Source of the DNA: an uncultured delta proteobacterium
GTDB lineage: Bacteria; Desulfobacterota; BSN033; UBA1163
Direction of reading: 5' to 3'
Length of the DNA stretch: 64,000 nt
NCBI GenBank assembly: GCA_963708295.1
Contig: CAVPSJ010000017.1
Location: forward strand, 1 to 64,000
Shown here: positions 540 through 54,782 of the stretch, piece by piece
Layout of the letters: each line of letters starts with the position of its first letter
How positions within the stretch are numbered: the first letter of the stretch is position 1
Translations under genes and position numbers: made by a program
Notes under the pieces: model-generated
Seen by the model: the letters and a program-made list of their open reading frames with translations, nothing else
Told to the model about the DNA's origin: nothing
Database searches by the model: none

Positions 540-640
540 CCGTTTCACCCTATTTACTGATGAGAGTCAGAACTCGAAAACTTTCACCAAAGTGTCATGA
601 TGGGCTTGGGTTAAGAGGTGACGATTTCCATTTGAAAGAG
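540..640 (+). repeat. Multi-box element, degenerate C-A copy
   Basis: TTCACC at ~583, then GGTGACGATTTCCATTTGAAAG (A box at 623). Confidence 0.45.
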
Positions 641-669
641 AGTAGAACGAACCTATAGGAAAAGTTGTT

Positions 670-1721
670 TTAGCGATAGAGAACGGTGCCTTCGGGAGCC
701 ATTTGACCTTTCGCAAGGTCAGTTCCTCTTCCTCCCTGAGCCCAAGATTTGTAGCGAAGGTAGTTAGATTGGGATTTCCAGACCTGGAGAATAGGCGGTT
801 CCTTAATCAGGTTAAAAAGTTCTCTGGCCTTATGTCTATCTTTCGCCAGGCAAGCAAATAACGCAAAATTGTTGATATTCCACTGATCTGGATATCGCTT
901 GAGGACATCATCAATTCCTTTTTTCATTTTTTCCCATACAACATTAGAATCAATAAAAAGCTTTTCACCATATTGATATTGGGAAGCAGCCCAATAAATC
1001 CGTGCATACATCCCCAGACCTTCCTGTTCCTTTGTTCTTGAAACTGCGGAATTTGCGAATTCTTCAATCTCTTTCTGCGTTTCCATGCCATTTTGGAGCG
1101 AAATAGTTTATTGCTGCAAAATATAATTGGTAGTAGAGAGGCTCTTTTTTTAGCCCTTCGTCGATGATTTTCTGGAATTCAGATCTATCCACGCTTAAAC
1201 CAGTAGCTATAGCTGCCATGACCTCATACCAGTGTGGATCTGCACTTGCTATCTCTCTATGTTTCTCTAAGAAGGCTTTACCATTAATGAGATGTTCATG
1301 AAAAGGTTGCCAAGCTTCTTCAGGTACTGTATTTGCAAAACCACCCCCTCTAAACTTCCATGCATATCGCTTCATTACAATTCCGTGAGATATATAGGGA
1401 GTTGGTGATTGTGGATATTCCTTAATCCATCCTTCGGTCCTGGACTTTATGGAATTCCAATAATTTTCGTCCTTTGCATTTATATTCGCGCCATCATTAA
1501 TCCCGTAATAAAACGTCGTCAGCTTCCATAGCCCGCTCGGTGTTCTGCTTTTGTTCACCCTATATTCTTGAGCAAGTTTTTCAAGCTCCGTAAAATTTCT
1601 GCTGCTCAATAAGAATCCCTGTGTTCCTATCGCTTTCCTTTCTTCAGTTTCTCCAGCAATCAAGGTATTTGAGGCTATTGTTATAAAAAAGGAAAATCAG
1701 CACCAGTATTCTTGTTTTCAT
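670..1721 (-). CDS. DUF4034-like secreted protein, split by frameshifts (ORFs 1064-1663 and 670-1086)
   Basis: AGGAGG RBS and ATG at 1721 with signal-peptide-like start; motifs SGLWKL, YAWKFRGGGFANTV, EPLYYQLY, PKWHG; continues in another frame. Confidence 0.65.
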
Positions 1722-2050
1722 GTCCTCCTCACTCTTATTACTTTTTATTAGGACAACTCAAAATCTTTCGATCTCCTGTCCCCTTGCAGACAAATGCAGC
1801 AAATTTCTTGCCAGAAAACTAAAACTTATAGTCTTTATCCATAACATATTGGAAAACAGATATATTTGAACTCCAGGAAGGGCGAGTATTTAAGATGAAA
1901 GGACTACTACCCATGCTCTTCAGCAGTCCATTTTTGCTCATAAGAGGCTAAGAATTCACCATTTTTTTGATTCTCTCTTTGATTTGATTGGCTTGAAAAT
2001 CGCTAAACCAGCGAGCTTACCATAACGACGAAGAATTTCGGATTTACTGT

Positions 2051-2236
2051 CATATCGATTACCATTTGGAATCGAGTACGCTCTTCCATGTACGATCCGG
2101 CTCTCGATTACAGGAAGTACTAACTGAAATTTCTTTTTCGAGATTTTTGGAGCAGGTTGATACCAAAATTTGGCGAGTGCACCTACTTATCTTCGATAGC
2201 AAGGTAATCTGGAAGTTGATGATTACCAGTTGAAGT
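2051..2236 (+). repeat. Multi-box element, complete long form (A-B-C-A)
   Basis: GATTAC 2057, CAGGAAG 2111, CACCTAC 2180, GATTAC 2221 (spacing 54/69/41). Confidence 0.9.
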
Positions 2237-2240
2237 AAAT

Positions 2241-2270
2241 AAAAAAGGCAGGAACATTACAGATCCTGCC
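2241..2270 (-). terminator. Intrinsic terminator abutting the repeat
   Basis: GGCAGG...CCTGCC stem with T-tract on minus strand, downstream of 2304-2726. Confidence 0.75.
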
Positions 2271-2303
2271 CTTGGTTTTTAACAATTTCATGTGGATTTA
2301 TTT

Positions 2304-2726
2304 TCAAAGTCCATCCATTTCTTTGCGGCGATTTTTCACCTCTTGCTCCAAGACCTTGGCGGATAAAGATCGGGTGATGATGAGACGCAATTCATCAATA
2401 TCGAAAGGTTTGGTCACGTATTCATAGGCTCCAAGCTTCATTGCTTCAACGGCTGTTTTCACCGTTTTTGTGGCCGTAATCATAATCACAACCATTTTCG
2501 GGTCATTCTGCTTGATTCTTTCCAAAACTTTTAAACCATCCAGGTCGGGTAAAATGATATCGAGAAGGATAACGTCTGGAGAGTGCTCTTTGATTTTGGA
2601 AAATGCCTCTTCGGCGTTTCTGGCTAAAAACACCTCATAATCATTCTTTAAAATCATCTTGAGAGATTCTCTGGCTCCAATTTCATCATCAACGATTAAT
2701 ACACTTCTCATTTTTCCTACCAACAT
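2304..2726 (-). CDS. Response regulator receiver domain (NtrC-like N-terminus only)
   Basis: VLIVDDE, DVILLDIILPD, MITA, AMKLGAYEYVTKPF. Confidence 0.85.
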   Translation of the reverse strand: MLVGKMRSVLIVDDEIGARESLKMILKNDYEVFLARNAEEAFSKIKEHSPDVILLDIILPDLDGLKVLERIKQNDPKMVVIMITATKTVKTAVEAMKLGAYEYVTKPFDIDELRLIITRSLSAKVLEQEVKNRRKEMDGL

Positions 2727-2827
2727 AACAAACCAAACAAAAAAAACCCCATTCCTTTTTCAGAAATTGGGTCTAAATTGAATCCTTACCCATGTTAGGG
2801 GAGGTGTAGTGTCCATGGTTTTCCTCT

Positions 2828-2900
2828 CTAAAGTGAAGTTTGAAAAACACACTTTCAGGAAAGAAGCCTTGAAAAGGGGGATTACTTGCTACACCTGCCC
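2828..2900 (+). repeat. Multi-box element, B-C short form
   Basis: TTTCAGGAAAGAAGCCTTGAAAAGGGGGATTACTTGCTACACCTGC closely matches 37275-37320. Confidence 0.65.
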
Positions 2901-2927
2901 GTCAGTAGCCTGAGGTGTGCTTGGCAA

Positions 2928-3134
2928 TTAATCATTTCTGGTGGGAATATTCGTATCTTTTCCTACCTCAATTTTAATGAGCCCAAATCCCCCGCATTTT
3001 TGGCAACATTTACGTTTTGGATTTATTGAAAATCCTTTGCCGTCACACAAGGGACATAATACCATACCGATTTTTTCCGGATCAAAAGTTTTATTCAAAT
3101 TAATTTTCCCCCGTTTTTCTAAGAGTTGCCTCAT
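2928..3134 (-). CDS. Small Cys-rich zinc-finger protein (CxxCxGxG type)
   Basis: CPLCDGKG and CQKCGGFG motifs. Confidence 0.55.
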   Translation of the reverse strand: MRQLLEKRGKINLNKTFDPEKIGMVLCPLCDGKGFSINPKRKCCQKCGGFGLIKIEVGKDTNIPTRND

Positions 3135-3539: not shown

Positions 3540-3590
3540 AGGAATTCTTAAATCGTTACACTTAAGCTGAAGAAAACGAGCAGCAATAAG

Positions 3591-3880
3591 TTTACTTACT
3601 TATGGCTTCTTAGGGTCTTTCTCTGTCTTGATTACTCTTTGTTCATAAGGTTCAGACATAAGCCGCTTCCAATCATCAAGTGGTCTTTCACCTTTGCCAC
3701 CCTCAGGATGCCATTCCTTAATCCGTCTTGGCTTAGATTTACTGTTTGTCATAATTGCCATTTGTCTTTGCCTCCTTTTGAGGCTTAACATACTTCGTCA
3801 GTTTGTACCAGACCCTATTAGGCCCTGCCCCTTTATCTGAGACCTCAAACTCAGCGTGTATCTTTTCAATGGTCATTCAC
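3591..3880. repeat. ~290 bp module duplicated at 43813-44102
   Basis: Near-identical by direct comparison. Confidence 0.9.
3600..3761 (-). CDS. Small hypothetical protein (53 aa), duplicated at 43822-43983
   Basis: AGGAGG RBS before ATG at 3761; second near-identical copy keeps the frame. Confidence 0.5.
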   Translation of the reverse strand: MAIMTNSKSKPRRIKEWHPEGGKGERPLDDWKRLMSEPYEQRVIKTEKDPKKP

Positions 3881-4011
3881 TTCTTTTAACCCAGGACACA
3901 AAATGGAAAAGGAACGGAAGGAAACAAGTAAGAAAAGCTGAGGGGAAGAAAGTAAAAGAATTGGCGCACAAATCCGCTACATTGAATAATGCTTCATTCC
4001 CATTCTCGGCA

Positions 4012-4477: not shown

Positions 4478-4635
4478 TATCCTGGAAAATATCTAATCTG
4501 ATACCTGCCTTAAAAATACCCAAGGCTGAGGGTTTCACCACAAGTCTACAGCCTAAGATAACGCTGGAAGTCAACGGTTACTGGTAGAAACACTGAATAG
4601 CGTGAATCGAATATAGCACCAGTTACCAGGGGGAG
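4478..4635 (+). repeat. Multi-box element, degenerate B-C-A-B
   Basis: CACCAC 4536, GGTTACTGGTAGAAAC 4576, CAGG 4627 (spacing 40/51). Confidence 0.45.
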
Positions 4636-5293: not shown

Positions 5294-5593
5294 TCACACC
5301 TCCATTTATACTTTTTTGAAAATAGCTCCTTCTATACCACAATGTGGCATTTCCGTCAAGGAAAACATCTATCCTATCACTTAAGATTCAAAAGTGCATA
5401 GGTTTTGGTGGATTTAAAGCTGAAAAGTGCATAGCCTGATTTATGGTAAAAGAACCTTCCCCGGAGCTGCTATCTTTTAAAGACTGAAACGGGAGATGGG
5501 CTTAATCTGAAGAGAAGCACGTTACTCCCTTTTAACACTTTATCATCGGGCCGAATCTTCTGGAAATACCACTTTTCGTTGTTATCAACCCAA

Positions 5594-6890: not shown

Positions 6891-7089
6891 TACTACGCCC
6901 TCGTTTCTTACAAAAATATTTAAGGGTGGTATCCCATCTAACGAAACCTCGGGATTAATCTTCCCCTGTGAAGATTCTGGATGCCCTTCCTTATTGATGC
7001 AGAAAGTGAGGCGAATGTACCAAGAATGGAATTGTATGTCAAGCCGCATAAAAAACCGGCATAAAAAATCGCAAGAGAGGGAGCGGTTT

Positions 7090-7180
7090 TTAGACCAGTA
7101 TCACAGATAACGATTAGCAAATGAAATCTTGCATCATGGTCGAAGTCTGTCAGCCAACGATTACAGGAAGTACTAAATAA
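7090..7180 (+). repeat. Multi-box element, A-B half
   Basis: A 7112, B 7164; spacer nearly identical to copies at 11524 and 39885. Confidence 0.8.
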
Positions 7181-9916: not shown

Positions 9917-9996
9917 AGGCTCAAAGAATTAACTAATTACTGAGTGAAACATCCATCATGTCCTTGAGATACCCAAATATCTGAAAGAAGCCGGGT

Positions 9997-11504: not shown

Positions 11505-11702
11505 AGCTAGTATCGTAGGTAACGATTACTAAATCAAATCTTGCATCATGTTCGAAATCTACCAGTCAACGATTACAGGAAGAACTAAATGACATTTCCT
11601 TTTCGAGATTTTTGGAGCAGGCCGATGGTAAAAATTGGCGACTTCACCTACAAATCCTCAGCCTGTGCCATTACCTGGCGTTGAGGATTACTGGTAGAAA
11701 CC
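11505..11702 (+). repeat. Multi-box element, complete long form
   Basis: A 11524, B 11576, C 11645, A 11686 (52/69/41). Confidence 0.9.
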
Positions 11703-14159: not shown

Positions 14160-14332
14160 TTACTGATTTCGGCTTGAAATATTGCATTCTGAAGGAAGAT
14201 ACCAAAAACAATATTTCAGGAAGAACTCACCGGGTCAAAGGAAAATGCGACACCTCAGCAGAGTTTTGGGGAGGACACCTCTAATCTATACAATCAACAG
14301 GCTCAAGAAGTTGACGATTACCATGAGAAAGC
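14160..14332 (+). repeat. Multi-box element, complete
   Basis: A 14165, B 14217, C 14276, A 14316; perfect 10-bp inverted repeat TGAAATATTG/CAATATTTCA. Confidence 0.85.
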
Positions 14333-16414: not shown

Positions 16415-16482
16415 TTTGAGGATTATCACTTGAAATCTGGCATACCGATATGGATTCTCGACTTGAGGACTTCAGGAAACAA
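16415..16482 (+). repeat. Multi-box element, A-B half
   Basis: GATTATCACTTGAAAT 16421, CAGGAAA 16473 (52). Confidence 0.7.
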
Positions 16483-16799
16483 TGTTGCATCGCTACCCCT
16501 CGGTTGCCTAATAAATAGGTAGTCAGACCGACCACAGATTCACATGGGATACTCCAAAGAGTGAAGATTTCTTTTGAAAGTCATTGGATCATGTCCTCTT
16601 CCATCCATGCAGACGAACTTCCCACAAAATGTTTCTTGATGACTTCATCCCGAAATTAGCAGAGGCATCTCGAAAAATCAGAGGAATCCCACTTAGGAGA
16701 GACAAGCCCTCGATCTAATAAAAAGGTGAAAGGCAGGATTGGAAAACTTACTCATAAGCACCTGATCCAGAAGAAGAATTGAAGAGAAGGCCATGAGGG

Positions 16800-16975
16800 A
16801 TTATCGGAAGAGGATAGGATCAAAACCCACCGTGTTCACTCAACACAGCACCTACAAGTCATCGCTCAACGATGAGATCATGGGCTGCGGATTACGGTTT
16901 GAAATCACGTATCCAGGTGAACATATGAAAATGAAATCCTCGCTTTTTTGAGGTGTCGGAAACAGAGGGTTTATA
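16800..16975 (+). repeat. Multi-box element, C-A plus extension shared with 22667-22790
   Basis: CACCTAC 16849, GATTACGGTTTGAAAT 16890 (41). Confidence 0.75.
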
Positions 16976-22539: not shown

Positions 22540-22808
22540 CTTGAAGATTATCGTTTGAAATGTTGCACTCTGAAGGAAGATACCAAAATCAACATTTCAG
22601 GAAGAACTAAATGAAATTTCCTTTTTGAGATTTTTGGAACAGGTCGATAGTAAAATTCGGCGAGTACACCTACAAATCGTTGTTCAACGATGACATCTCG
22701 GGCTGCGGATTACGAGTTGAAATCATGTATCGCAGTTGAACATATGGAAACCAAATCCTGGCTTTTTTGAAGTGCGGAAAAAAAGGGTAGCAGATGGTTA
22801 CACCTCTC
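22540..22808 (+). repeat. Multi-box element, complete long form plus start of a second unit
   Basis: A 22546, B 22598, C 22667, A 22708, further C-like CACCTC 22801. Confidence 0.9.
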
Positions 22809-22983: not shown

Positions 22984-25890
22984 ATGAAAATCACGTCCCA
23001 GATATTCCAAGCCTACCTCAAATGCAACACTAAGTGCTGGCTCATCTCTCTCGGCAAAAAAGGCAAGGGGAACGAGTATGCCGCTTGGGTCAGAGATCGA
23101 AACGTTTCCTGTTATAGTGCGGGAATTAAACGCTTGTTTGAAGGACTACCAAAAAAGGAATGCCTTTTCCCATCTGACCAAAGAGGATTTGAAGATGCCT
23201 GGATGGCGTTGGGCTGCGAGACTTGCTGGTCGAATCTGATTTCAGTGATACCAAAACTTATAGTTTCCAGAAACTGTTGAATCGTTCACATATGAAAATA
23301 GCTTCTCAGGAATATCCGTCTGCTTCCTCGAGCGCTAGAGTTGCGTTGGCCACTCATCTTCAGGCCGTTGAACGGATTGGTTCCAAACGGGAAAGAAGAG
23401 CCACCCAATATGTTCCCATTCGCTTTATTTCGAGGTACAAGATCACCCAAGCCGATAGGCTAGTGTTGGGATTTGATGCACTCACCCTGTCGAAAGCGCT
23501 CGGGCATAACGTAATTTATGCCAAAATCATCCGAGGAGATGATTACAGCGTATCGAAAGTGAAGACCATCGTTCTATTGGGTAAGGTTCGGAAGCGAGTT
23601 GAAAAGATTGTCACTCTACTGGAGAACCCTTTTCCACCGGACCTCGTACTGAACCGAAATTGTTCCGAGTGTGAGTTCAAATCCGAGTGCCATCAAAAGG
23701 CCATCGAGAAGGATGATCTAAGCCTGTTACAAGGTATGACAGCAAAGGAACGTGAGATGAATCATAGGAAAGGGATCTTCACTGTCAACCAGCTTTCCTA
23801 CACCTTTCGTCCCCGTCGGCGACCAAAACGGCATAGAGGAAAAAGGGAAAAATACCACCATTCACTAAAGGCATTGGCGATTCGGGAGAACAAAATACAT
23901 GTAGCGGGAAACCCTGAACTTAAAATCGATGGTACGCCTGTCTGTTTCGACGTAGAAGCACTCCCTGATCGGGGTTTTTACTACTTGATTGGCCTTCGAA
24001 TCAGAAACAACTCCTCAGCCGATCAATACAGTCTTTGGGCAGACAGTGTTAATGACCAGGAAGTCATCTGGCGACAGTTCTTGGATATTTTGGCATCCGT
24101 TGAAAACCCTGTTCTCATTCATTACGGTAGCTTTGAAACCACTTTTCTTAGGGATATGACGAAGCGTTATGGTAAACCTCCGGAGGGCTCTGTTGCAGCC
24201 AATGCCATCAAATCTGCTGTGAACTTGTTATCAGTGATATTCGGGCAGATTTACTTCCCCTGTTATTCCAATGGACTTAAAGATATTTCGAGATTTCTCG
24301 GTTTCGAGTGGTCTGACCCAAATGCAAGCGGGATTCAAGCTATCCTGTGGCGAGAAAGATTGGCATAATTCACATGAGGGTGTCTTCAAGGAAAAACTTA
24401 TCACTTACAATTCGGAGGATTGTGAAGCAATTTGCCGAGTAATGGATTGTTTAATCAATATAAGTAACCGCAATTCAGGAAGTCTCCGGCACATCTGCGA
24501 ATGATTTCGTCTCACATCGATTCTTTGCCTAGCGCATTTCCCTTTCGTTATCGGAAAATCCAGTTTGCCTTCCCCGAACTTGAAGAGATAAACAGTGCTG
24601 CATACTGGGATTACCAGAGAGAGCGTTTACTTCTAAAGTCCAACAGCTCTCCTAAAACAGCTGCGCGAAGAGTAGCAAAAAGCAGAAGAATAAAACTCCG
24701 CCCTAATAAAGTGATTTCTTTTCCAGCCCCTTCCCAGTGTCCCACCTGTGGAAAAACAAAGATCTACAAGCACCAGGCCTATACGAAGACAATTCTCGAT
24801 TTAAAATATAACAACTCAGGAATTAAGAGATGGATCACAAAATACTTGTATTGCAGGTATCGATGCTGCCGCTTGTAACACAGTGTTTTTTGCTTCAGAG
24901 CGACCTTGGAACCGCAGCGAGAAATTTGGCAAAAATCTTTTGACGATGACCATCTATCTCAATATCGGGCTTCGAGTACCTCAACAGAGAGTTGCCACAT
25001 TTTTCAACGAAATATTGGGCCTCAGTTTCTCTCGGGCCGTCCCAAATAGATTCAAGTCCATTTTAGCCCTATATTATAAACCAGCCACCGAGAAACTTTG
25101 GAAAAGATCATTGGTGGCGGTTTAATTCACGCTGATGAGACGAAGGTGAATATAAAGGGACAAATAGGGTACGTTTGGGCGTTCTCCAATCTGAAGGAAG
25201 TTGTGTATTTGTATACCCCCACTCGCGAAGGCGAGTTGGGTTCTTGAACTCTTAAAGGAATTCAAGGGAGTTTTGGTTTCCGATTTCTACTCAGTCTATG
25301 ATTCACTGGACTGTCCACAGCAGAAGTGTTTGATTCATCTGATTCGTGACATGAATGACGATCTTCTCAAAGAACCTTTTAATACTGAAATGAAATCCCT
25401 TGTGGCTGACTTTGCAGCTCTCGTCAAGCCGATGATAGAAACAGTGGATAGGTTCGGCTTAAAGGCACGCTTCTTACGAAAACACAAAAAAGATGTGAAG
25501 CGATTTTTTAAGTCACTTTCACAACAAGATTTCCGCACGGATGCCGCTGCAAAATGCAAAGTACGACTCCTGAAGAACCGAAAGCAGCTATTTACATTTC
25601 TCGATTACGATAACATTCCTTGGAATAACAATAACGCAGAACATGCGGTTAAAGCGTTTGTTTATCTGCGCCGAGATATCCGTGGTAATTCAACTGAAAG
25701 CGGTATTCGTGACTATCTTATACTTCTAAGTTTATGCGAGACCTGTCGGATCAAGGGGTTGAGTTTCCTAGAATTCCTTAGATCTCAGGAAACAGACATC
25801 GACGCCTTTGCTCAAAAGCGGTTAGGAACAGTTGAAAAGATTAGCCTTGTCTGGGAACCCAAGAACTTTACTCAAACTGAAGATATCTGA
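22984..25890 (+). mobile_element. TM0106-type RecB/Cas4-like nuclease + RNase H-like domain + IS66-family transposase, split by frameshifts
   Basis: YLKCNTK, NCSECEFKSEC, FDVEA, IHYGSFE, YNSEDC, CPTCG, IHADET (~25125), GVLVSDFY, QKCLIHLIRD, PWNNNNAEHAVK. Confidence 0.8.
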
Positions 25891-25945
25891 TTGAAATCCT
25901 CAACAAGGGCGGGAAATTCCACCTTGGCGATTTCAGGAAGTACTC
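25862..25945 (+). repeat. Multi-box element, A-B half overlapping the transposase stop codon
   Basis: GATATCTGATTGAAAT 25882, CAGGAAG 25934 (52); left flank matches 47881-47915. Confidence 0.75.
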
Positions 25946-26011
25946 TTCGGAGACAAAAAAGGGAGGACCCTCTCTGATCTTCCCTCTGATATCCAGCAAA
26001 TAAATATAAAT

Positions 26012-27180: not shown

Positions 27181-27730
27181 TAATGCGAATTTATTCTTCT
27201 TTCCCGCAATTGCTCCTCAGTAAACAGATAGCTTCTCCGCAGGCACTATGGAATCTTCTTCCCAGATCAACTTATCGGGGACGATAAAGATCGCATTTTT
27301 ATCTTTTACCATTTGGCCAAACATCAATTTTGCCCATCTTATGCCAGATTCAAATTGGCTTCTTCCTCTTGAACCCCTCCTTCTCTCTGTTAATACAGCC
27401 ATAAGTTCGCCTTTTTTAAGTTCATAATCCTTATAATAAACTTTATAGATTATCATCTTGCTCCCGGCTCATATATTCAGTTCTTCTAAAACCAGATATA
27501 TTGTAAAGAGAGCAAAACTCGTACCAAGTAATGTCACTATGTCTGTTCGTTCCAATTATTGAAAACGGATGATAATTCATGGTAATTTAAATAAACTCTA
27601 ATCAATTTTGTATTACCGTTGATGAAAGCCTAAGTGGAAAAGATGTTCCCAAGAGTTCCAAATCCCTTCCTGATAATGCGGAACCATTCCTGCACCCTTT
27701 ATTGATTTAGGATTGAAATCTTCTATTTTG
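27181..27730. repeat. ~550 bp module duplicated at 33565-34111
   Basis: High identity by direct comparison, ending inside the A-B spacer. Confidence 0.9.
27217..27456 (-). CDS. Small 'ERR'-family protein (paralog of 33480-33839)
   Basis: MIIYKVYYKDYELKKGELMAVLTERR. Confidence 0.65.
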   Translation of the reverse strand: MIIYKVYYKDYELKKGELMAVLTERRRGSRGRSQFESGIRWAKLMFGQMVKDKNAIFIVPDKLIWEEDSIVPAEKLSVY

Positions 27731-27880
27731 AGGAGAAATTCGAAGATCGCGGTTGCAGGAAGAACTAAATGAAATTTCTTTTTCGAGATTTTTGGACCAC
27801 ATTGAATAGAAACAGTTGCCGACTTCACCTACTCACCGATAGTGAGATGATCTCAAAGTTGGGGATTCCCGAAAGAAAGC
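27700..27880 (+). repeat. Multi-box element, complete long form
   Basis: A 27704, B 27756, C 27826, A 27864. Confidence 0.85.
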
Positions 27881-29197: not shown

Positions 29198-29372
29198 TTA
29201 TTGATTACTATTTGTTAAATCGAAAGGTGGAAATTGAAAATCACTTTTTCAGGAAATATTAAATGAAATTTTCTTTTTGAGAGTTTTTGAGCAGGTTGAT
29301 AGTAGAATTTGGCGAGTACACCTCCTTCACAATAACAAGTCAGTCTGATAGCTGACGATTACGGATTGAAAT
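29198..29372 (+). repeat. Multi-box element, complete long form
   Basis: A 29203, B 29250, C 29319, A 29357 (GATTACGGATTGAAAT). Confidence 0.85.
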
Positions 29373-30717: not shown

Positions 30718-30821
30718 CCGTAACAGTTAATTTAAGATTAAGTTATTCATAGTGGTCGAGCCATAGCTGCATTGTTCATTTGCAGTTGTAATATACACCT
30801 TCTTATAAAATTAGTGAACAG

Positions 30822-30897
30822 AAGATTAGAGGAAGAAGTCCTCGTTTCCCAAAATCCAGCCGATCAAAACACCAAATTTGAAGCTTTCACCTACCTA
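30822..30897 (+). repeat. Multi-box element, B-C, interrupted after C
   Basis: B-C spacer matches 50175-50240; CACCTAC 30888. Confidence 0.65.
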
Positions 30898-30986
30898 TAC
30901 GTAACAAAATGGATTGACCGTTAGAACGGCTAAGGGTCATGATCTATTCTGCTTTTTCTTGAAAAAGAAAAGGAGGAGGAGGAGAA

Positions 30987-31568
30987 ATGACCCAGGGACA
31001 GTTGATCACCAATGAATCAACCAGAAGTGAGGATGAAGTACTACGTGGCCAGCGCCTTTTACTCACCCCCATCGACCGCATCCTTCAGAAGCTCTCTTGT
31101 CTGGAGCTTCCTGGCAAGGAACACTTCGAGTGCTATATGCGCCACAAGTGGCGCCTGAACCACAAGCCGAGGACCCTCGCCAGTTCTTTTACGTCCGCCA
31201 GGCTCTTCCTGGACTTTTATGGAAAGTCAGGCAAGAGAGAAATCGAGCAAATAGAACGGGTTGATCTGGAAGGCTTCATCGAGCACGAGCAGGACCGGGG
31301 ATTACGGATCTCCACAGTGCGAACGAGGCTTGCGTGTATTATCGCATTTGTGCATTTTCTGATGGAACAAGATGTCATCCCCGGATCCCTTCTTAAGCGG
31401 GGCATCAAGCTGAAGCTGCCGGACGTTCTGCCCCGGGCCATGAACCCCTCCGATGTGAGAAAGCTTCTCTCGGTGATGGACGACATCCGGGACCGGGCCC
31501 TGTTTCTTCTCCTTTTACGGACAGGGATACGGATCGGCGAGGCCTTGGGACTGAGGAAAACCAAATGA
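30987..31568 (+). pseudogene. Tyrosine recombinase (XerD/phage-integrase type), truncated by the repeat
   Basis: SAM-like N-domain, LPRAM, RDRALFLLLLRTGIRIGEAL; HxxR, H/W and Y regions absent. Confidence 0.85.
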
Positions 31569-31678
31569 AATTTTCTTTTGGAGATTTTTGGAGCAGGTTG
31601 ATAGTAGAATTTGGCGAGTACAGCTCCTACTCTACGATGGTGAGTTGATCTCGGAGTTGGTGATTACCGGAGGAAATA
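31551..31678 (+). repeat. Multi-box element, B-C-A long form fused into the integrase
   Basis: GAGGAAA 31553, CAGCTCC 31621, GATTAC 31662. Confidence 0.85.
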
Positions 31679-34079: not shown

Positions 34080-34203
34080 TTATTGATTTACGATCAAAAT
34101 CTTCTATTTTGAAAGGTGGAAATTGAAAATTACTCTTTCAGGAAATACTAAATGAAATTTTCTTCTGGGTGATTTTGAAGTTTGGCGATTACCGAAGGAA
34201 ATA
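34080..34203 (+). repeat. Multi-box element with internal deletion of box C
   Basis: A 34085, B 34139, A 34187. Confidence 0.8.
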
Positions 34204-34207
34204 AACA

Positions 34208-34240
34208 AAAAAGGCAGGACCATCCCTAGTCCTGCCCTTT
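34208..34240 (-). terminator. Intrinsic terminator abutting the repeat
   Basis: AAAAAAGGCAGGAC...GTCCTGCC. Confidence 0.75.
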
Positions 34241-34771: not shown

Positions 34772-34853
34772 ATTGATAGTAAAATTTGGCGAGCACACCT
34801 ACTTATCTGCGAAGCGAGCCAACCTCGAACCTTGATGATTACGGAAAGAAACG
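34772..34853 (+). repeat. Multi-box element, partial C-A
   Basis: TTGATAGTAAAATTTGGCGAG-CACCTAC 34796, GATTAC 34837 (41). Confidence 0.8.
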
Positions 34854-35539: not shown

Positions 35540-35690
35540 CCATTGATTCACGCTTGAAAATGTTGTATCGAAGACTGAAAATTAGAAAACAAGACTTCAG
35601 GAAGTTATCTTCGGAAAAAGGGATGCGGATAACACCTACGAATGTTCGCTCCAAGGTATCTCGGATGGTTAGCGATTACGGATAGAAATC
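35540..35690 (+). repeat. Multi-box element, complete short form
   Basis: A 35545, B 35598, C 35633, A 35674 (53/35/41). Confidence 0.85.
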
Positions 35691-37221: not shown

Positions 37222-37371
37222 TCATTGAATACCGGTTGAAATGTTGCAATATACTGTGAAATTGGAAAATCACTCTTTCAGGAAGGAGGCCTTGAAAAGG
37301 GGATTACTTGTTTGACCTACTACATTGCAATGGGGAGACGATCTGGGAGTTGATGATTTCCGTTAGAAAGA
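37222..37371 (+). repeat. Multi-box element, complete short form
   Basis: A 37227, B 37279, C 37314, A 37355 (52/35/41). Confidence 0.85.
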
Positions 37372-39861: not shown

Positions 39862-39996
39862 CTTAGGCCAGTATTCGAGATAAGGATTACCAAAATGAAA
39901 TCTTGTATCATGGTCGAAGTCTGTCAGCCAACGATTACAGGAAATACTAAATGGAATTTCCTTTTTGAGATATTTGGAGCAGGTTGATAGTAAAAT
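39862..39996 (+). repeat. Multi-box element, A-B and most of long B-C spacer, fused into gene 39924-40763
   Basis: A 39885, B 39938, abrupt switch to GC-rich coding DNA after TAAAAT (39996). Confidence 0.85.
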
Positions 39997-40763
39997 CCGG
40001 TCCAGAGGGTTGACGCCCAGTTCAGGAAAGTCGCCGTAAGCTCAGGGGTGGAAGCGACGGGTCGGTGCGCCTGATAGGCTTCTCGGACCGACCGGAAAGT
40101 CTTCGGATCGAAGTATCCCTCGATCGTGGGAAGCCCGAGCTCGCTTGCCACGTGCACCTGCCGTGATTGGCCGTCGGCGTCGCGTAGCACCCGGATACCA
40201 GGAGCCCAGACGTCGAAGCCCGTTTCCACTGCCCGCTTTCTCACCGCGATGTTGACTAGGCGATGCTGCACATGGCCGTATTCCCCCCAATTGTTGTGTG
40301 TGATCACACGTTTGATCGGTGGCGCAAAGTAGGGTCGAAGGTGAGGCTTGATGGTCGCCAAGTTAACAATTGGGGCACGCTTGCAGAAATCAGTGAAGAC
40401 CTCGGCCCAAATGTCGTTGTCGACGGACCCCCAGATAGGAGTCCATCGCACGCGATAATTAAGCTCTGCGGGGAGGCTCTGGACGAGATCCTGAAATACT
40501 GGCGCGGCGGGGTAAGCTGCAAGAAGAAACTTGGTTGCAACGGGCCAGAATGGTAACATCCAGAGCACGTCGTCGTCCTGGTGGGCAAAGACAACGAGGG
40601 TCTGGCCATCGCTGAAGATCGCGACTGACTCTTGACCTCCATCTGTTGCGCGGAGTGTGCTCTGAGCAGATTTAGGTTTATAGTCTTTATGAGTGGAAGC
40701 ACATCCAAATAAAAAAACTGAAATGGAAATAAGCAATATCATGAGAAGCAATTTTTTATACAT
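39924..40763 (-). pseudogene. Lipoprotein leader + PIG-L/LmbE-like deacetylase fragment, truncated by the repeat
   Basis: LFGC lipobox, FAHQDDD, ITHNNWGEYGHVQH; last ~23 aa come from the repeat. Confidence 0.6.
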
Positions 40764-43089: not shown

Positions 43090-43155
43090 CTGGTTCAAAT
43101 TGAAATCATGTATGGATGGGTTCAGATCGAAAAACGATATTTTTTCAGAAAGTGC
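43090..43155 (+). repeat. Multi-box element, degenerate A-B
   Basis: ATTGAAATCATGTAT...TTTCAGAAAG. Confidence 0.5.
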
Positions 43156-43210
43156 TCTTGTGCGGGGAGTCTGGCAACATTTGGGGAAACGCTGTGGCTT
43201 GGGATGACCC

Positions 43211-43983: not shown

Positions 43984-44194
43984 TTGTCTTTGCCTCCTTT
44001 TGAGGCTTAACATACTTCGTCAGTTTGTACCAGACCCTATTAGGCCCTACCCCTTTATCTGAGACCTCAAACTCAGCGTGTATCTTTTCAATGGTCATTC
44101 CACTTCCTTTAAGCCAGCGAATGTGATGCATAAATTTGCATCAGGCCACTTCTCCCATATAAGATGCATTGCCTAGTCTTCTGTGGATTTTCTT

Positions 44195-44260
44195 CCGGTT
44201 ATTACAACTTGGAATCTTGTTTGGAATCGAGATTTCCAAAAATCAGGACTTCAGAAAGTA
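44195..44260 (+). repeat. Multi-box element, A-B half
   Basis: TATTACAACTTGGAAT 44200, CAGAAAG 44252 (52). Confidence 0.55.
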
Positions 44261-44416
44261 AGCGAGCGAGGACGATATTACCCAAATTCTGGGAAGCGGC
44301 AAGAGCTATGAATAAAAGGCTTAATTAATACGTCTTAAAAGTAAAGATGTTTGGCGGATAGAGAAAAATAGCGAGTTTAAATTCTTTGGATTAAAATAGC
44401 AGAGGAGGTAAAAAAA

Positions 44417-44755
44417 ATGAAAAGAATTGTATTAATAGGCACTTTATTGCTGGTCTTTGTCCTGACAGCCGGCACAGCTTCGGCTCGGGTCATTTTGCCT
44501 CCCGGGTGGCCTTTCCTCCCACCAATCATCACTCCCCCGGTAATTGAAGCACCTCCCCCAGCTTATTACCCCGATACTTATGGCTATTACTCATACCCCT
44601 ATGGTTATTATGGTTCTCGGAGTCCGGGTTACTGGGGTTATGGTGGACGGGGTTATTATGGTTCTCGGGGTCCGAGTTACCGGGGTCATGGGGGAAGGGG
44701 TTATTATGGTTCTCGGAGTCCAAGTTACCAAGGTCATGGGGGGTATCGCCGATAG
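44417..44755 (+). CDS. Secreted Pro/Gly/Tyr-rich protein with three 16-aa tandem repeats
   Basis: GAGGAGG RBS, signal peptide, GYYGSRxPxYxGxGG x3 (48-bp unit). Confidence 0.75.
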   Translation: MKRIVLIGTLLLVFVLTAGTASARVILPPGWPFLPPIITPPVIEAPPPAYYPDTYGYYSYPYGYYGSRSPGYWGYGGRGYYGSRGPSYRGHGGRGYYGSRSPSYQGHGGYRR

Positions 44756-44894
44756 CACTTTTTCCGATCAACTGCACTATATAATGACGGAATCGTACCA
44801 TTCTCCACCTTCATTGACTTGAATCGGGTGGGTCGGGTTTTTGGGTTTGAGCGGGTTAAAATTAGATTAGCTAGGCTCATTTTAAGGGGAGCAG

Positions 44895-45038
44895 ATGAGA
44901 GGTTTCTCAATTAACAAAAACCTATGTCTTTATTATTGGCTGAGAAAGAGAGTTAGAAAGAGGCAAACCTATAGGGTGTCCAATACTCTCGAAAAGGTTA
45001 TCCTGATTTTTGGAAGAGAATATATACAACTTTTTTGA
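44895..45038 (+). CDS. 47-aa basic small protein, paralog of 5144-5293; 3' end runs into the repeat
   Basis: MRGFSINKNLCLYYWLRKRVRKRQTYRVSNTLEKVILIFGR. Confidence 0.55.
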   Translation: MRGFSINKNLCLYYWLRKRVRKRQTYRVSNTLEKVILIFGREYIQLF

Positions 45039-45133
45039 GATTTGTCGAGCAGGTTGATAGTGAAATTTGGCGACTTCAGCTACAAACCGTGAGGATCAGT
45101 CTCCATTAAGGGTTGATGATTTCGGATTGAAAG
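45008..45133 (+). repeat. Multi-box element, B-C-A long form
   Basis: CAGCTAC 45077, GATTTCGGATTGAAAG 45118 (41). Confidence 0.8.
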
Positions 45134-45607: not shown

Positions 45608-46218
45608 TATTGATTACCATTTGGAAGAGCGTATCGAAGGACAAAAACCACTCTTTCAGCTTACTAAATGAAATTTCATTTTCGAGATTCTTGGAGCAGG
45701 TTGATAGTAAAATTTGCTGACTTCACCTCCTACTCTTTGAGTATGTTATAAGGGTATAGGAATGGGTTTAGCTCATTCAAAAGGAAGAGGCAGGAGGACT
45801 TGAGTTTCACCTGGGTCATTGAATCCTCTTTGTAGTGTGTCCCTGCCTCCCCAAGCCATGATAGGTTGGTTGGGTCAAAGAACCCTTGTGATGATGGAGG
45901 TTTGGTGGGGAGGCATTTCCTGCCCTTCCGATCAGCAGGCTATCCAAGAGAGGCAACCGTCATGTGAGGCGTGTGATTTTCCTGATGACCCTTTGTGCGG
46001 TGAGAAGCCGTAATATCTTTAGGGAGTACTTCGTCAAGAGAAAAGAAGAAGGCCTGCCGCCCAAGAAGGCTATCCTTGCTACTGCTCACAAACTGCTGAG
46101 AGTTCTTTTTGCCAGGCTAACCCGTAAATCTTACTTTCGAACGGAGGTGGTTGAAGCATAGTTGACTACAAAGAGTGGGGATGATGCTGTTCAGAAGTTG
46201 AGGATCTCGGATGAAAGT
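45608..46218 (+). repeat. Multi-box element split by an IS110 derivative
   Basis: A 45612, B 45657, C 45724; A 46203 after the insert. Confidence 0.8.
45740..46177 (+). mobile_element. Internally deleted IS110-family element (438 bp)
   Basis: Transposase C-terminus (FREYFVKRKEEGLPPKKAILATAHKLLRVLFA); TG core at both junctions; right end has TTGACT, left end has TATAAG. Confidence 0.8.
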
Positions 46219-47880: not shown

Positions 47881-48078
47881 CACTTTACCCAAACTGAAGA
47901 TATCTATTTGAAATCTGCATTGGAAGGGAAGAGGGGCGTTTCATTGATTTCAGAAAGTACTAGATGAAATTTCCTTTTCGAGATTGTCGGAGCGGGGCGA
48001 TAGTAAGATTTGGCGAGTACACCTACCTATCTTCGATGTGAGCTAAGCTTCAACCTTGATGATTACGGGGAGAAAGAT
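47881..48078 (+). repeat. Multi-box element, complete long form
   Basis: A 47899, B 47951, C 48020, A 48061 (52/69/41). Confidence 0.9.
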
Positions 48079-50117: not shown

Positions 50118-50289
50118 TGGAGGATTGTCATTTGAAATCTTGCATGTGCGGATGGTTTTTCAGAATCTCTCTTTCAGGAAGGAGTCTTCGTTTTCCCAAA
50201 TCCCGCCGATCAAAAAAACTATGTTGAAGTTTCACCTACCTATCTTCAGTGAAAGGATGATCAGGGAGTTGATGATTACGGGATGAAGC
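50118..50289 (+). repeat. Multi-box element, complete intermediate form
   Basis: A 50123, B 50175, C 50233, A 50274 (52/58/41). Confidence 0.85.
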
Positions 50290-50410: not shown

Positions 50411-52222
50411 CTAATCTGGATTTATGGTCAGAGGAATATCGGACGCTTCTCCTCCCCAGCCCATGCCATAGGTACTTCCATCGGAAGAGTGAATAATCCA
50501 CCAGCCGCCATTGCTACTCTGGTAAATGGCGACATCCGTCTTTCCATCACCATCGTAATCCCCGGGCACAGGGGTGAATCCAGATCCGCCCCATCCCACT
50601 CCATAAGCCCCTACTTGCCCCTGTGGTCCAGTACCCGAAGAGGGAGTGATCCACCAACCACCGTTCGTGGTATTGTAGATGGCGATGTCTGTTTTTCCAT
50701 CCCCATCATAATCGCCGGGAACAGGTTTGAATGCTGATCCACCCCAGCCTATTCCATAGGCTGGAATGCCAGAAGAGGGAATGATCCACCACGCACCTCC
50801 CGTGGTATCATAGATGGCAATGTCTGTTTTTCCATCCCCATCATAATCGCCAGGAACAGGTTTGAAAGCTGATCCACCCCAACCCACTCCATAGGCCCCC
50901 ACTTGTCCTTGTGGCCCTACCCCTGAAGAGGGGATAATCCACCAGGCACCCGTTGTGGAATTGTAAATGGCAATATCGGTCTTTCCATCCCCATCATAAT
51001 CTCCAGGGACAGGTTTGAAAGCAGATCCACCCCAGCCTATTCCATAGGATGGAATACCAGAGGAGGGGATGATCCACCACGCACCGCCCGTGGTATCGTA
51101 AATTGCAATATCTGTTTTTCTATCTCCATCGTAATCTCCGGGAACGGGTTTGAATCCAGGTCCACCCCAGCCATAGCCATAGGCAGGAGAGCCTGAAGAA
51201 AGAGTGACCCACCAAACACCCGTGCTGGTACGGTAAAAGGCAATATCGGTCTTTAAATCACTGTCGAAGTCACAACTAATAGGCCTGCAACCACCAGGCG
51301 GCTTAAGATCGAAGACATACTGGAGGACCTCATGGGCCGCCTGTTCCGACCACATGACGGCGTTGGCTATCCTTTTGTCCAAAAGGACACCTTCATCGCC
51401 CTGTTCAATAATCCAATCCAAGCTAGGGAGGGGGGCTGGCCAGGCAAGTGCGGTGCTGTGCCGGTATGAAAGGAGGTCACTCTCCAAACTGATGGCGAAC
51501 GCGTCATCAGATGTGAAGCACCGACCAAAAATTCGAAAATCACTGAAACTCCAAGCCTTCGGTACGTAGTTAAAGTCGGTATTTTCCCAAACAAACTCAA
51601 GCTCCAAAGGCCAATCAACCTCCTGGTAACTGCCCCACAAAAGCGGTCCAAGGTGAGGAGGGTTGAGGAAGTCCTCTGCGAAATGCACGGCGTAGCCCGC
51701 ATGGACCATGGCTCGACTTCTGTTGTTATTGATTAAATCTTGCTTTGCCTTATCGGCCCAGTATTTTATCGGATTCCACACACTCAAATCTGCGAATTCG
51801 TGATTCATTAGGTTATCGAAGTCGTTTTCCCAGTCGTCTTTGAATGTGAAGCAAGGCTCATCGGTGCAACTATACCCAAATATGCCCAATTCGACTATGT
51901 CCCGACCTATCAATGCCTCGACCTGCAGGGCACCCTCCCACCACCAAGTGTTCTTAAGGCCAGGACCCGCCCCCCATATACCATCAGGTGTTGACGCTCC
52001 ATCCCTGAGGAGCTGCCGCTCTTCAGCAGAGAGATAGCCTGCCGGAAGCAAGTTGTTAGAATCCAACCAGAGGATCGCATTTTCCGCCATCATACCGTGT
52101 GCGCCTCCAGGGGGCACATCCGTCAAACCAAAGAGCGGCCCGGCCGACCACCCCTCTGCCCGCTGTTGAGTGCCCAATAAGCCAATCGCCACGCAAAGGA
52201 CTACCATTGAGGCGAGCCTCAC
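50411..52222 (-). CDS. Secreted protein: Zn-dependent phospholipase C/P1-like domain + FG-GAP repeats
   Basis: Mature N-terminal W, AHG, PD, GYAVHFAEDFLNPPH; repeated VPGDYDGDGKTDIAIY. Confidence 0.75.
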   Translation of the reverse strand: MRLASMVVLCVAIGLLGTQQRAEGWSAGPLFGLTDVPPGGAHGMMAENAILWLDSNNLLPAGYLSAEERQLLRDGASTPDGIWGAGPGLKNTWWWEGALQVEALIGRDIVELGIFGYSCTDEPCFTFKDDWENDFDNLMNHEFADLSVWNPIKYWADKAKQDLINNNRSRAMVHAGYAVHFAEDFLNPPHLGPLLWGSYQEVDWPLELEFVWENTDFNYVPKAWSFSDFRIFGRCFTSDDAFAISLESDLLSYRHSTALAWPAPLPSLDWIIEQGDEGVLLDKRIANAVMWSEQAAHEVLQYVFDLKPPGGCRPISCDFDSDLKTDIAFYRTSTGVWWVTLSSGSPAYGYGWGGPGFKPVPGDYDGDRKTDIAIYDTTGGAWWIIPSSGIPSYGIGWGGSAFKPVPGDYDGDGKTDIAIYNSTTGAWWIIPSSGVGPQGQVGAYGVGWGGSAFKPVPGDYDGDGKTDIAIYDTTGGAWWIIPSSGIPAYGIGWGGSAFKPVPGDYDGDGKTDIAIYNTTNGGWWITPSSGTGPQGQVGAYGVGWGGSGFTPVPGDYDGDGKTDVAIYQSSNGGWWIIHSSDGSTYGMGWGGEASDIPLTINPD

Positions 52223-52566
52223 CAGCCTGAATAGTCCGTGAGTTCGTAAAGTCTTCGTTTGCCTTCTCCTTCCGCGCCGTCACCGGCACTCACTTGTTTG
52301 TTGTTGCTGTTCAGCGTCCAGTTCAAGGACAGCCAGTTGTCATACAACAGGTCCTCAATCAGAGTCCAGAAGGTTTTCCTCGACAATTCGAATAATCGCT
52401 TCACGGATTGAAATGAACAATTATTATACTGCATTGTGTAATTTGTAAGAATCCTACCCATTCAGGTGCTTTTTGTCAATGAGAAATCAGGAAAGTCATG
52501 GGCTTCTCAGTATAGGGGCTGCCAATATAATCGGAAGGTTATCACAATTTGGGATTTTCTGCGAGC

Positions 52567-52662
52567 GAATAATTTCTTAAGAATGAAATGTTATATTGCG
52601 TGTCTATAATTCCTAAGGTCTATTATTCTGAGCATTCATCATTGAGGATTTCCGCCGAAAGA
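52567..52662 (+). repeat. Direct repeat ending in an A box (partner 54641-54737)
   Basis: GAATAATTTxTTAAxAAxGAAATGTTATAT...CCxAAGG shared. Confidence 0.55.
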
Positions 52663-52735
52663 ACGAATAACGGGTTCCTTAGCTGCAACGGTTAGCTGTT
52701 GGCGGAAAGATCAAGGTTAGGAATTCCCGCCTTAT

Positions 52736-53648
52736 TCAAAAATTGCTCCTATTCGGTCGTCCGGCAAGGTATTTCGACAGACGCTCATAAGACAGAAGGT
52801 AAAATGCCGCCAACCCCCGGTATGGCTTAAAGAGTGATAATTTTCTCATCGTTCCTTGTGGCGACAAACGCTGTCCGCGACCGAGATAGCGACCGACAAT
52901 ACTTCTAATACCGAGATCTTCTGCGGGGACCCGGTCCGGACGGCTTAGGCCTCGAACAAGAAAATACTCGGCCGACCAGGGCCCAAGACCCCGTACCTGG
53001 AGGAGAACAGATCGAACATCTTCGTCGGACATCGCCTCTAACTGGTCAAGATCAAGCAGTCCATTAGCCACCTTATGAGCCACTCCCTTCACATACTCTG
53101 CTTTGCGTTGAGAAAGTCCGCATGTCATAAGATCTGCCGCTGAACTCTCACTCAATCGTCTCGGGGTTGGAAAAGCCCAAAGGCCATTCACAGGGTCCCC
53201 AAACCGTTCGATCATCCGCGTTCTAATACGATAAGCAGCTGCCAAAGAGATCTGTTGCTCGGTGATGGCAATGACAAGCATTTCAAATAAAGATGCAGGT
53301 CGAATCGGCTTGAGGCCATGCAATTCTTGGGTTATCCGCCCTAAGACTGAGTGGGATGCCGTGAGCTGGTAGAATGGCAAAAGATCCAGCTCAGCGGAGA
53401 TGATCCATCTCGCTATCCGGTTGACCTCTGATGCACTGTCCGGCTAGATCGGTCCGTATCTCAAACGTAGGAGGATCACGACGGACTTGGCTCAATTCCA
53501 ACGTTGTCGGGATATCTCGGATTCTAACCGCGGAGCGAAGAACAGAGAAATCCTGGAATGGATCAGGCGAAAAACTCCTCGCAACACGCAAAGACAATTC
53601 AAAATCATGCGGACCAACTGACGAGATAGAAAACGCAGTCATGTTCAT
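52736..53648 (-). CDS. alkA: DNA-3-methyladenine glycosylase II (AlkA-like), one frameshift near 53390
   Basis: FEMLVIAITEQQIS, FPTP, GLSQRKAEY, RGLGPWSAE, EDLG. Confidence 0.8.
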
Positions 53649-53822
53649 ACCGATGGCCTATGTTCTTCATTCGCAAACTCCTAACGCAAAAATCAACCAC
53701 GAGTCTAACGAGTCGGCTGCACTGCCTTCGGCAATCAATTGGCCTTTATTTCCTGTCGCTTGTCCGTTGTGACCCCATCCTCTCTGATATTTACAGCCAG
53801 CTTACTGATTTTGCCAATGTAG

Positions 53823-54430
53823 GATATTCGACGGAAGGAGGTTGATAGTTATCTGCCGGATATCCCAGCGCGCATCCATCAAGCGCATATTCCCCAGCGG
53901 GAATATTCGAGAAGTCTGCAAAAATCAGGGTCACTATCCATTTGCATCGTTGCACTGACAAGTTGAAGACCAATACCGAGTGATGTTGCTTTCAGCCACA
54001 TATTCTGAAGGCAGTAGCTAAGCGATTGTGCGGCAACTGGAGGCATTCCTTTTCTTTCTCCGACAACAACAAAATATGGTGCATTACCGACACCGGGTAC
54101 GCCTTGTTGTCCGATTCGTTTTAGATTCTGCACAAAAGGAACAGGTCCCACCTTCTTTTCAAGTTCATCGGCCAGCTTTGCCATTCGGTTTTTGAGAATA
54201 TCCGCTGCGGCTTCCATCGCTGATGACGAGTTTCGAATCACGAATACCTTTCTAAAGTCAGGTTTCCCGGCAACCGCAAGTGCTCCAAATGGAGCTAACA
54301 GGCCCGCTTGGATTATTGCCTCAATAGCCTCTTGGCTTGGCGGGATAGAGCTAAATGCTCTTACTGAGCGCCGTGCTCTTATGATTACATCAAGGGCTGC
54401 ACTGTGTTCGGGGGTGATGTTTTCAAACAT
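53823..54430 (-). CDS. Nitroreductase family protein (frameshift near 3' end)
   Basis: RRSVRAF, AGLLAP, QNMWLKATSLGIG; C-terminus ALGYP in another frame. Confidence 0.8.
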
Positions 54431-54640
54431 CCTGTTCTCCTTTCATTTGTTGTCTTTTCTCTTATGCCTAACAATCATCATGCTACAAGGAATAATTTCT
54501 TGAATTTTATCCCCAAGAGCACTTTCTGTCAATCAATTCGGGCCTCTTAGCATTCTACCGATAAAGCGAATCATGATGGACTTCTTATCGTATTTTTACT
54601 TTCAGGATATTTCAGCGATTATAAACCCTTTATTCTATTT

Positions 54641-54782
54641 GAATAATTTGTTAAAAACGAAATGTTATATGACGTGAATATCGTTCCCAAGGGTTATGAT
54701 TATCGATTATTCACGCTCAACACTTTCCAGTTGAAACATTGTATAAACAAGGTCGCTTCAAGGTTGAGGACTTTAGGAATAA
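54641..54782 (+). repeat. Last multi-box element copy (A-B), right edge of the array
   Basis: ACTTTCCAGTTGAAAC 54722, TAGGAAT 54774 (52). Confidence 0.55.

Follow-up and report, generated by a model that had tools for sequence, protein, structure and literature searches.

Gene array and connectors

The window analysed here is a stretch of 64,000 nucleotides from an uncultured delta proteobacterium related to sulfate reducers (contig CAVPSJ010000017.1 of assembly GCA_963708295.1), in which unrelated genes are strung out between co-oriented copies of a composite non-coding repeat that we call the connector. Because the window begins at a contig end, the left end of this array is not seen; to its right, core genes (pdxA, thiolase, ECH, ETF) begin at 55476, pdxA being the first. 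The open reading frames (ORFs) of the cargo lie mostly on the minus strand and the GC content ranges from 0.38 to 0.63 per kb, in agreement with the unrelated, mostly minus-strand modules of differing GC content that the initial annotation had described between the copies. Cargo functions are likewise unrelated and include response regulators, radical SAM enzymes, a lipid A acyltransferase, a PAS kinase, a DTW protein, an isochorismatase, an AMP-binding enzyme, a phosphoesterase, an aldo-keto reductase, a cytochrome c, and TPR and FG-GAP proteins. Many cargo units are multi-gene and carry their own terminator.

The repeat architecture is real, its motifs occurring far more often in the window than expected by chance. 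The A box (GATTAC-N3-TTGAAAT, with up to one mismatch) has 11 matches, all on the plus strand, where 0.16 were expected, and the B box (TTCAGGAAG) has seven exact matches, also all on the plus strand (1.08 expected). The C box (CACCTAC) has 14 exact matches (2.66 expected); 11 of them are on the plus strand, 10 of which fall at the C position of a connector copy. The motif GTTGATGATTAC, with up to two mismatches, was found 18 times (5.57 expected). We built an nhmmer model from the ten copies first regarded as complete, which start at 2057, 11524, 14165, 22546, 27704, 29203, 35545, 37227, 47899 and 50123 and match the model by construction; the whole unit aligns in each of them. At E≤10 this model found 25 places in the window, 23 of them with E≤0.05 and all 25 on the plus strand, in keeping with the 25-29 or so co-oriented copies first claimed.

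Each connector is modular. A left module (L) of about 60 nt has an A box at one end and the B box at the other, and a right module (R) of about 56 nt consists of the C box, about 35 variable nt, GTTGAT and a second A box. The boxes of the layout first proposed, A-B-C-GTTGAT, were thus correctly recognised, but the A box is found at both ends of the unit, where it forms direct and not inverted repeats. Between B and C lies a middle (M) that takes a common form of about 60 nt, one of several short forms (about 27 nt), a form of 370 nt that is also dispersed as a repeat in its own right, or others; the B-to-C spacing varies because M is a replaceable module. L and R modules often stand alone, and a conserved GC hairpin follows many R modules.

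The first complete connector (2057..2235; all copies in the window are on the plus strand) comprises L, a 62-nt common M and R, with the C box at 2180-2186 and GTTGAT plus the second A box from 2215. The conserved GC hairpin comes directly after R at 2239..2270, at the 3′ end of a minus-strand response-regulator gene (2304-2726), and hairpins of the same family lie at 25953-25984, 27881-27912, 31680-31711 and 34205-34236. Further complete connectors occupy 11524..11700 (C box 11645-11651), 22546..22722 (C box 22667-22673), 27704..27878 (C box 27826-27832), 29203..29371 (C box with one change, CACCTCC) and 47899..48075 (C box 48020-48026). Those at 35545..35688 (C box 35633-35639) and 37227..37369 (C box GACCTAC) have the short M, the one at 14165..14330 has a different M and a degenerate C box, and the one at 50123..50288 has yet another M type (C box 50233-50239). 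At 16421..16904, L (16421-16481) and R (16848-16904, C box at 16849) are separated by an M of about 370 nt. At 44201..45132, an insert lies between L (44201-44263) and the end of M plus R (45030-45132); it contains a Gly/Tyr-rich plus-strand ORF (44417-44755) with 24-nt internal repeats.

The remaining copies are partial. L occurs without R at 7112..7178, where a profile search found the L module only, at 25882..25950, where it is followed at once by the conserved hairpin, and, with the common M, at 39887..40000 and at 45612..45739, the last reaching up to the C position (both found by nhmmer). At 34085..34191, L and part of M are fused to an A box by an internal C-R deletion, and the end of M plus R stands at 34773..34851 (C box 34796-34802). 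A degenerate L with M, ending in a C box at 30888-30894, occupies 30779..30894, and a common M with R at 31557..31676 is joined to a broken recombinase gene described below. By nhmmer we also found a weak, partial connector at 2825..2943 (model positions 22-173), a weak R module at 4525..4590 (E 0.15) and a very weak L-like stretch at 43096..43157 (E 2.5). An A box with a decayed R body lies at 9933..9950, between the start of the lipid A acyltransferase gene (9916) and a radical SAM gene, where relatives have a full R module. The right end of the array is marked by a last degenerate L-like module at about 54705..54782, recognised by eye and without a match to the models.

Several tests bear on what kind of site the connector is. 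Folding of ten units on both strands with RNA parameters gave z scores of −3.26 to +1.63 against 50 simple shuffles, only 1 of 20 being below −2, and eight L ends folded as DNA did no better than shuffles (z −1.72 to +1.35). Since whole units and L ends fold like shuffles, an attC-like or RNA-like fold was rejected; a stem of 10 bp in L, showing one compensatory change, was confined to one subfamily among 40 distinct L copies. The connector is therefore not an attC site, as it has no such fold and its ends are direct instead of inverted. No dif-like 28-bp site (11-bp arms, 6-bp centre) was found in the connectors using a loose pattern, and the best candidate that this loose pattern gave in the genome is at C11:169518. 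Judged on layout, without a run of a CRISPR finder, the array does not have the single short repeat, regular period and unique spacers of a CRISPR, the copies being 1.5-11 kb apart with coding DNA between them, and Rfam gave no match at gathering thresholds over the whole window. The initial annotation had likewise set the site apart from attC, dif and CRISPR repeats. The likeness to resolvase res sites that it suggested instead fails, as serine recombinases (PF00239) have no match in the genome, which is 91% complete. The connector fits none of the attC, CRISPR repeat, dif and res classes.

A sigma-70 scan found 31 promoters in the connectors against 26 ± 4.9 expected, which is no enrichment, and a check by eye for sigma-54 spacing was negative. 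A small protein beginning in the common middle (21-residue start) was dropped as a candidate, stop codons being present in 4 of 13 copies with E≤1. No full-length gene for this reading frame was found among the 40 matches listed, all of them on contig C17, and a likeness of this start to the N-terminus of xenobiotic acetyltransferases was dropped with it. The strong over-representation of the boxes, their strand specificity and the variable spacers between them fit protein-binding sites better than plain repeats.

The element is not specific to this array but forms a family found across the genome and the genus. In the genome of 4.95 Mb, refined models detect 33 L and 34 R modules, which are spread over both strands and at least 10 contigs and form clusters. 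The window holds 12 L and 13 R modules, so that 25 of the 67 (37%) are clustered in 1.1% of the genome. A BLAST search with one connector copy matched 12 of 14 genomes from elsewhere in the genus and, outside it, 2 of the 10 sampled genera of the family. The ORF on the cargo side is on the strand opposite to the module in 49 of 57 assessable cases (21 of 23 in the window and 28 of 34 elsewhere; 10 modules with no ORF within 800 nt were not assessable). Therefore, L stands upstream and R downstream of the cargo wherever the element occurs.

A two-recombinase element at the connector boxes

The only Phage_integrase match in the window is the ORF at 30987-31568, which codes for the first 193 residues of a tyrosine recombinase and is a truncated copy of a gene that we name intA. 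Full copies on contigs C5 (100161-102096), C8 and C12 carry two Xer-like genes in tandem, namely intA (337 aa) and intB (311 aa), whose products both match Pfam Phage_integrase at 1e-36. The whole element measures about 2.1 kb and has perfect 11-bp inverted ends with CACCTAC on both flanks; the junctions common to the three full copies read CACCTAC/CTATACGTAAC ... GTTACGTATAG/CACCTAC, the far junction of one copy being cut by a contig start. The left part of such an element occupies 30895..31556 of the window (plus strand), with the 11-bp end CTATACGTAAC at 30895-30905. This truncated copy keeps the left junction only, and its homology to the full copies ends at 31556; this is precisely where B and M of the next connector meet, and there the broken intA is joined to that connector. 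It had been suggested that the enzyme of the array may be encoded outside the window. The candidate enzyme is mostly encoded there, in the full intA-intB copies, but a broken recombinase element is present inside the window as well. The other intact tyrosine recombinases of the genome are two Xer-like genes and one further integrase.

We examined 26 loci from the genomes of other species. Four of them are copies in genome G010, which have the same ends and flanks. CACCTAC forms the left flank in 15 of the 26 loci and, among these, it also forms the right flank in all nine that have a perfect right end; in seven of these nine, the right-hand heptamer is also the exact start of an R module. Unoccupied connectors contain a single CACCTAC. 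The presence of the heptamer on both flanks of the element and of only one in empty connectors identifies the C box as a site-specific crossover core. In four loci, belonging to a 54-55% lineage, the right flank is the reverse-complement heptamer. The left flank is CTTCCTG in two loci and another heptamer in one; ends were not seen in three loci, and one locus begins at the end motif.

The B heptamer reads CTTCCTG on the opposite strand. This sequence flanks the element of locus L078 on both sides and is also the left flank at locus L080. Two copies in genome G019 differ in position, one (L030) abutting a B box followed by a known M type and the other (L032) lying inside the A box of an L module. 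Each of the three conserved boxes is thus used by one of three lineages that have the same inverted ends. Read from their junctions, these insertions show that the elements integrate by a 7-bp crossover at the C box, and that sister lineages do so at the B heptamer or in the A box. The enzymes shown to use the boxes are tyrosine recombinases.

Homologues of IntA number in the thousands. All 120 that were listed are 85-100% identical, most of them on contigs of a few kb and many on contigs of about 2.1 kb, and such close homologues on short contigs are the mark of a multi-copy mobile element. With two genes, inverted ends and 7-bp CACCTAC flanks, the element has the features of a two-tyrosine-recombinase mobile element. 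A limited literature search found no description of the connector or of a small two-recombinase element of this kind.

The element of the B-box lineage is about 3.4 kb long and has a third ORF after intB (about 4430-4740 of L078), with a similar ORF in L074. Element copies also occur in a metagenome-assembled genome labelled Aminicenantes, with an L module beside the element, and in one labelled Manganitrophaceae, with an R module beside it (L075 and L076); these two copies could reflect horizontal spread or a binning error.

Cargo turnover and its possible causes

The array occupies a variable spot, as the gene next to pdxA is a different one in relatives; theirs corresponds to C4:1052150-1053115 in this genome. 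A junction of contig C4 with the window start was considered, and abutment could not be shown. Segments of its first 20 kb are found singly, often in multiple copies, in relatives, and the whole array in none of 14. Of the words sampled from a 10-kb stretch, even the best public sequencing runs contain no more than 0.15. Contigs from four such runs carry connector and recombinase parts at a summed depth of hundreds-fold, with thin cargo, and in these contigs L-M, C-R and A-hairpin modules are re-assorted, with many mosaic joints. A radical SAM cargo gene is present in nine genomes, whose flanks are unshared in all 36 pairs, except for two short extra matches in one pair; in three relatives an R module lies directly 3′ of this gene. 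One conserved spot, bordered by two core genes, has unrelated cargo of about 3.9 kb in this genome, of two units in G010 and of about 17 kb in G003. In each of the three, an R and an L end enclose the cargo, and the variable part breaks off at the B box. Genomes G011 and G007 have other DNA without modules at the same spot.

Many of the breakpoints fall at boxes. Apart from the broken intA, two 3.4-kb copies in the genome, 95.6% identical, extend from a C box to the last base of a B box and then diverge. The match between a contig of genome G009 and the window begins at 2174, six bases ahead of the C box at 2180, and the lipid A acyltransferase gene and an R module meet at the C position. A unit with a 63-aa ORF that is common to the window and contig C15 ends in the middle of an A box, and a Y1-transposase unit common to this genome and G024 begins with GTTGAT and the A box and ends with the B box. 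The connector had been proposed to be a recombination site, and its boxes do coincide with crossover points; that cargo units move at the boxes we infer from these shared ends.

The reading that we favour, with evenly balanced confidence, is that of a cassette array in which each connector would group several crossover sites of tyrosine recombinases, with the intA-intB family acting on them in trans. The window would be a head-to-tail stack of mobile gene cassettes. On the plus strand, one unit would consist of M, the C box, R (GTTGAT and an A box, often with the hairpin), minus-strand cargo, an A box, L and the B box (TTCAGGAAG), and the multi-box site would mark where two units meet, M being preceded by the L-B end of one and followed by the C-R-A start of the other. 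The conserved boxes would act as core sites of Xer-like tyrosine recombinases encoded by the intA-intB elements, whose inverted ends measure 11 bp. Where two boxes stand in direct repeat, these enzymes may work in trans and excise a cassette as a circle with one complete connector, and the circle may then re-insert at a box elsewhere. As the cores are not palindromic, they would fix the orientation of each insertion, so that co-oriented arrays would arise.

A number of observations weigh against this reading. No recombinase gene, as might mark the end of such an array, lies at its right end, which abuts pdxA, and the left end is cut by the contig. Neither an excised circle nor a base-exact pair of filled and empty cassette sites was found; the public-run contigs are short and gave no interpretable circle junction. 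The breakpoints lie at three different boxes, which a single crossover model fits poorly, and some cargo differences are unrelated to connectors. For example, in contigs of two public runs position 31744 is followed, after nine other letters, by position 33536, and no connector lies at these breakpoints, so that other populations are without the AMP-binding enzyme gene here. The intA-intB element at 85-90% identity was not found by DNA search in genomes G003 and G008; of these, G003 has connectors (by BLAST and nhmmer) and a 54% recombinase lineage, and G008 has no connector BLAST match. The elements may thus simply parasitise an abundant repeat. Moreover, the connector flanks of the boxes are only weakly like the 11-bp arms (about CTAT, on the R side), and two of the three B-lineage insertions (L078 and L080) lie outside recognisable connectors.

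The main rival reading takes the connector to be a mosaic intergenic repeat of the BIME or BOX kind, with a role at transcript ends or starts or with none. Following gene transfer, homologous recombination from one connector to another would give rise to the arrays and shuffle the cargo, and the elements would only use a safe landing site. Connectors are indeed dispersed over many contigs and both strands, share with such repeats a modular A-B-C build with a variable middle, occur as separate modules between genes and serve as a landing site for a mobile element; the terminator-like conserved hairpin belongs to the R side, metagenome contigs re-assort every module with others, and G003 has connectors although the 85-90% element was not found there. 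Mobile elements that target repeats, such as insertion sequences or introns at REP or attC, are well known. Yet the modules are strongly clustered, 25 of 67 lying in 1.1% of the genome amid foreign cargo, have a fixed 5′/3′ polarity relative to the cargo and contain no palindromic units. Homologous recombination would not select for short, near-invariant boxes between drifting spacers. Three diverged element lineages strike exactly the three conserved boxes, and there is neither promoter enrichment (31 against 26 ± 4.9) nor a conserved fold. We consider this explanation rather unlikely.

Relatives of IS200/IS605 offer another way to move cargo. The units would be non-autonomous and would move as single strands by a Y1 transposase, with GTTGAT as the target at the left end and the B box as the right cleavage site. 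The strict co-orientation is typical of that family, and the last five bases of GTTGAT match the ISDra2 target. The genome has a single canonical IS200-type Y1 transposase gene (C8:110553-111071, L058/L059; 130 bits), which stands in cargo position in a unit with connector-like ends, from an R-A end to a degenerate L-B end (C8:110535-111180), and a 90% homologue in G024 shares 612 nt with it, a stretch that opens with TGTTGAT and the A box and closes with the B box. That this family should move the units is improbable all the same, given that conserved subterminal hairpins were found neither in the eight L ends (z −1.72 to +1.35) nor in whole units (1 of 20 below −2), that the L stem is limited to one subfamily, and that the transposase has a single copy here and was not found in G011 and G013, both of which have connectors; a 42% homologue in G044 is oppositely oriented relative to the modules. 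Even less credible is a sedentary integron array without integrase, that is, an integrase-less attC cluster (CALIN) whose attC sites would be unusually long. Such an array would look similar in having co-oriented, mostly small modules with repeats of 140-180 nt between them and in adjoining core genes, but the units here do not fold as hairpins, their ends are direct and not inverted repeats, many of the cargo units are multi-gene with their own terminator, and there is no IntI: IntA and IntB score 78.5 and 112 bits against an integron-integrase model with a cut-off of 265 bits.

Other repeats and remnants accompany the array. The unit with the 63-aa minus-strand ORF is about 300 nt long and occurs at 3591-3894, 43813-44117 and C15:290844-291148 in copies 96-97% identical; it is present in at least eight relatives, often in multiple copies, at 93-98% identity, far above the conservation of core genes. 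Beside its first copy, a 390-nt difference between 3557-3591 of the window and a G009 contig turned out not to be a connector. Remnants of an IS66-type transposase lie at 23223-25890 (plus strand), with an RNase H-like ORF, an ISL3-type zinc ribbon and a DDE_Tnp_IS66 fragment. A decayed gene of about 440 aa at 5466-7017, with B12-binding and radical SAM N-terminal matches, is multi-copy in relatives, G010 having three copies at 85-86%. Internal repeats are found in the TPR protein gene at 46235-47299 (minus strand; six 102-nt repeats) and in the FG-GAP protein gene at 50411-52222 (minus strand; 288- and 135-nt repeats). Outside the array, the intergenic region between thiolase and ECH genes (57916-58091) holds an unrelated dispersed repeat with units of about 36 and 60 nt, a family with dozens of occurrences, up to 97% identical, in all five relatives searched. 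Seven paralogous ORFs of 316-338 aa with weak Y1-transposase matches, elsewhere in the genome, might partner this repeat.

Relation to known gene-capture systems

The array belongs to none of the closest known systems. Integrons are the textbook case of stacking and swapping single genes and are tied to IntI and one kind of folded site. The array resembles them, above all sedentary chromosomal integrons and integrase-less attC clusters, in its long co-oriented row of unrelated cargo, each with a conserved recombination-type site, in the tyrosine recombinase as candidate enzyme, and in cargo that differs between relatives. In contrast, the site here lacks hairpin symmetry, repeats the A box directly at its two ends and has B and C as distinct cores; IntI, attI and a common promoter are all absent, units may be multi-gene with their own terminator, and the candidate intA-intB pair resides on small mobile elements. 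Tycheposon satellites, which are integrase-less islands at one att site, likewise consist of cargo-only modules placed head to tail between att-like direct repeats, but the repeat here is not a fragment of a tRNA or tmRNA gene; it is a composite of several cores and is found at many loci.

Xer modules comprise dif-integrating elements and the Xer-site-flanked resistance modules of Acinetobacter plasmids (PMC7399989), which are recombinase-less, stackable modules with short tyrosine-recombinase sites, as are the units here. Unlike their sites, the boxes are not dif-like, the sites are co-oriented and not alternating, and the array is not at a recognisable terminus. The small element alone can be compared with the Vibrio elements termed SEs, described in PMC9345347 as having four core genes, 19-bp end motifs, cargo and a preference for T-rich targets. 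Both have intA and intB tyrosine recombinases and short inverted core-type end motifs, imperfect in SEs, and the crossover region is 6 bp there and 7 bp here, a likeness of layout. The element here differs in its size of about 2.1 kb, in having two Xer-like genes only (with a third gene in the B lineage) and in its perfect 11-bp ends. A survey of tyrosine recombinases (PMC8138268) distinguishes trio and Tn554-type groups and, in its available part, includes no such pair element among its groups.

We tentatively propose that the array may represent a gene-capture system apart from integrons, built on a composite site of about 180 nt with the 7-bp cores A, B and C. Lineages of recombinase pairs would 'breed true' for one core each, because the core would travel in the circle junction of their own mobile element, and would shuffle cargo in trans, giving arrays of 50 kb and more in Thermodesulfobacteriota-like bacteria and spreading to other phyla.

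The array suggests that uncultured bacteria of sediments and wetlands achieve an integron-like result with different parts, namely a composite site that does not fold and holds several short cores, together with pairs of Xer-like recombinases carried on small mobile elements of their own. If true, this would widen the range of known mechanisms of gene capture and would explain the large islands of foreign genes in these genomes. It would also bring to light a recombinase family in which the 7-bp core seems to differ from lineage to lineage while the binding arms are kept constant.

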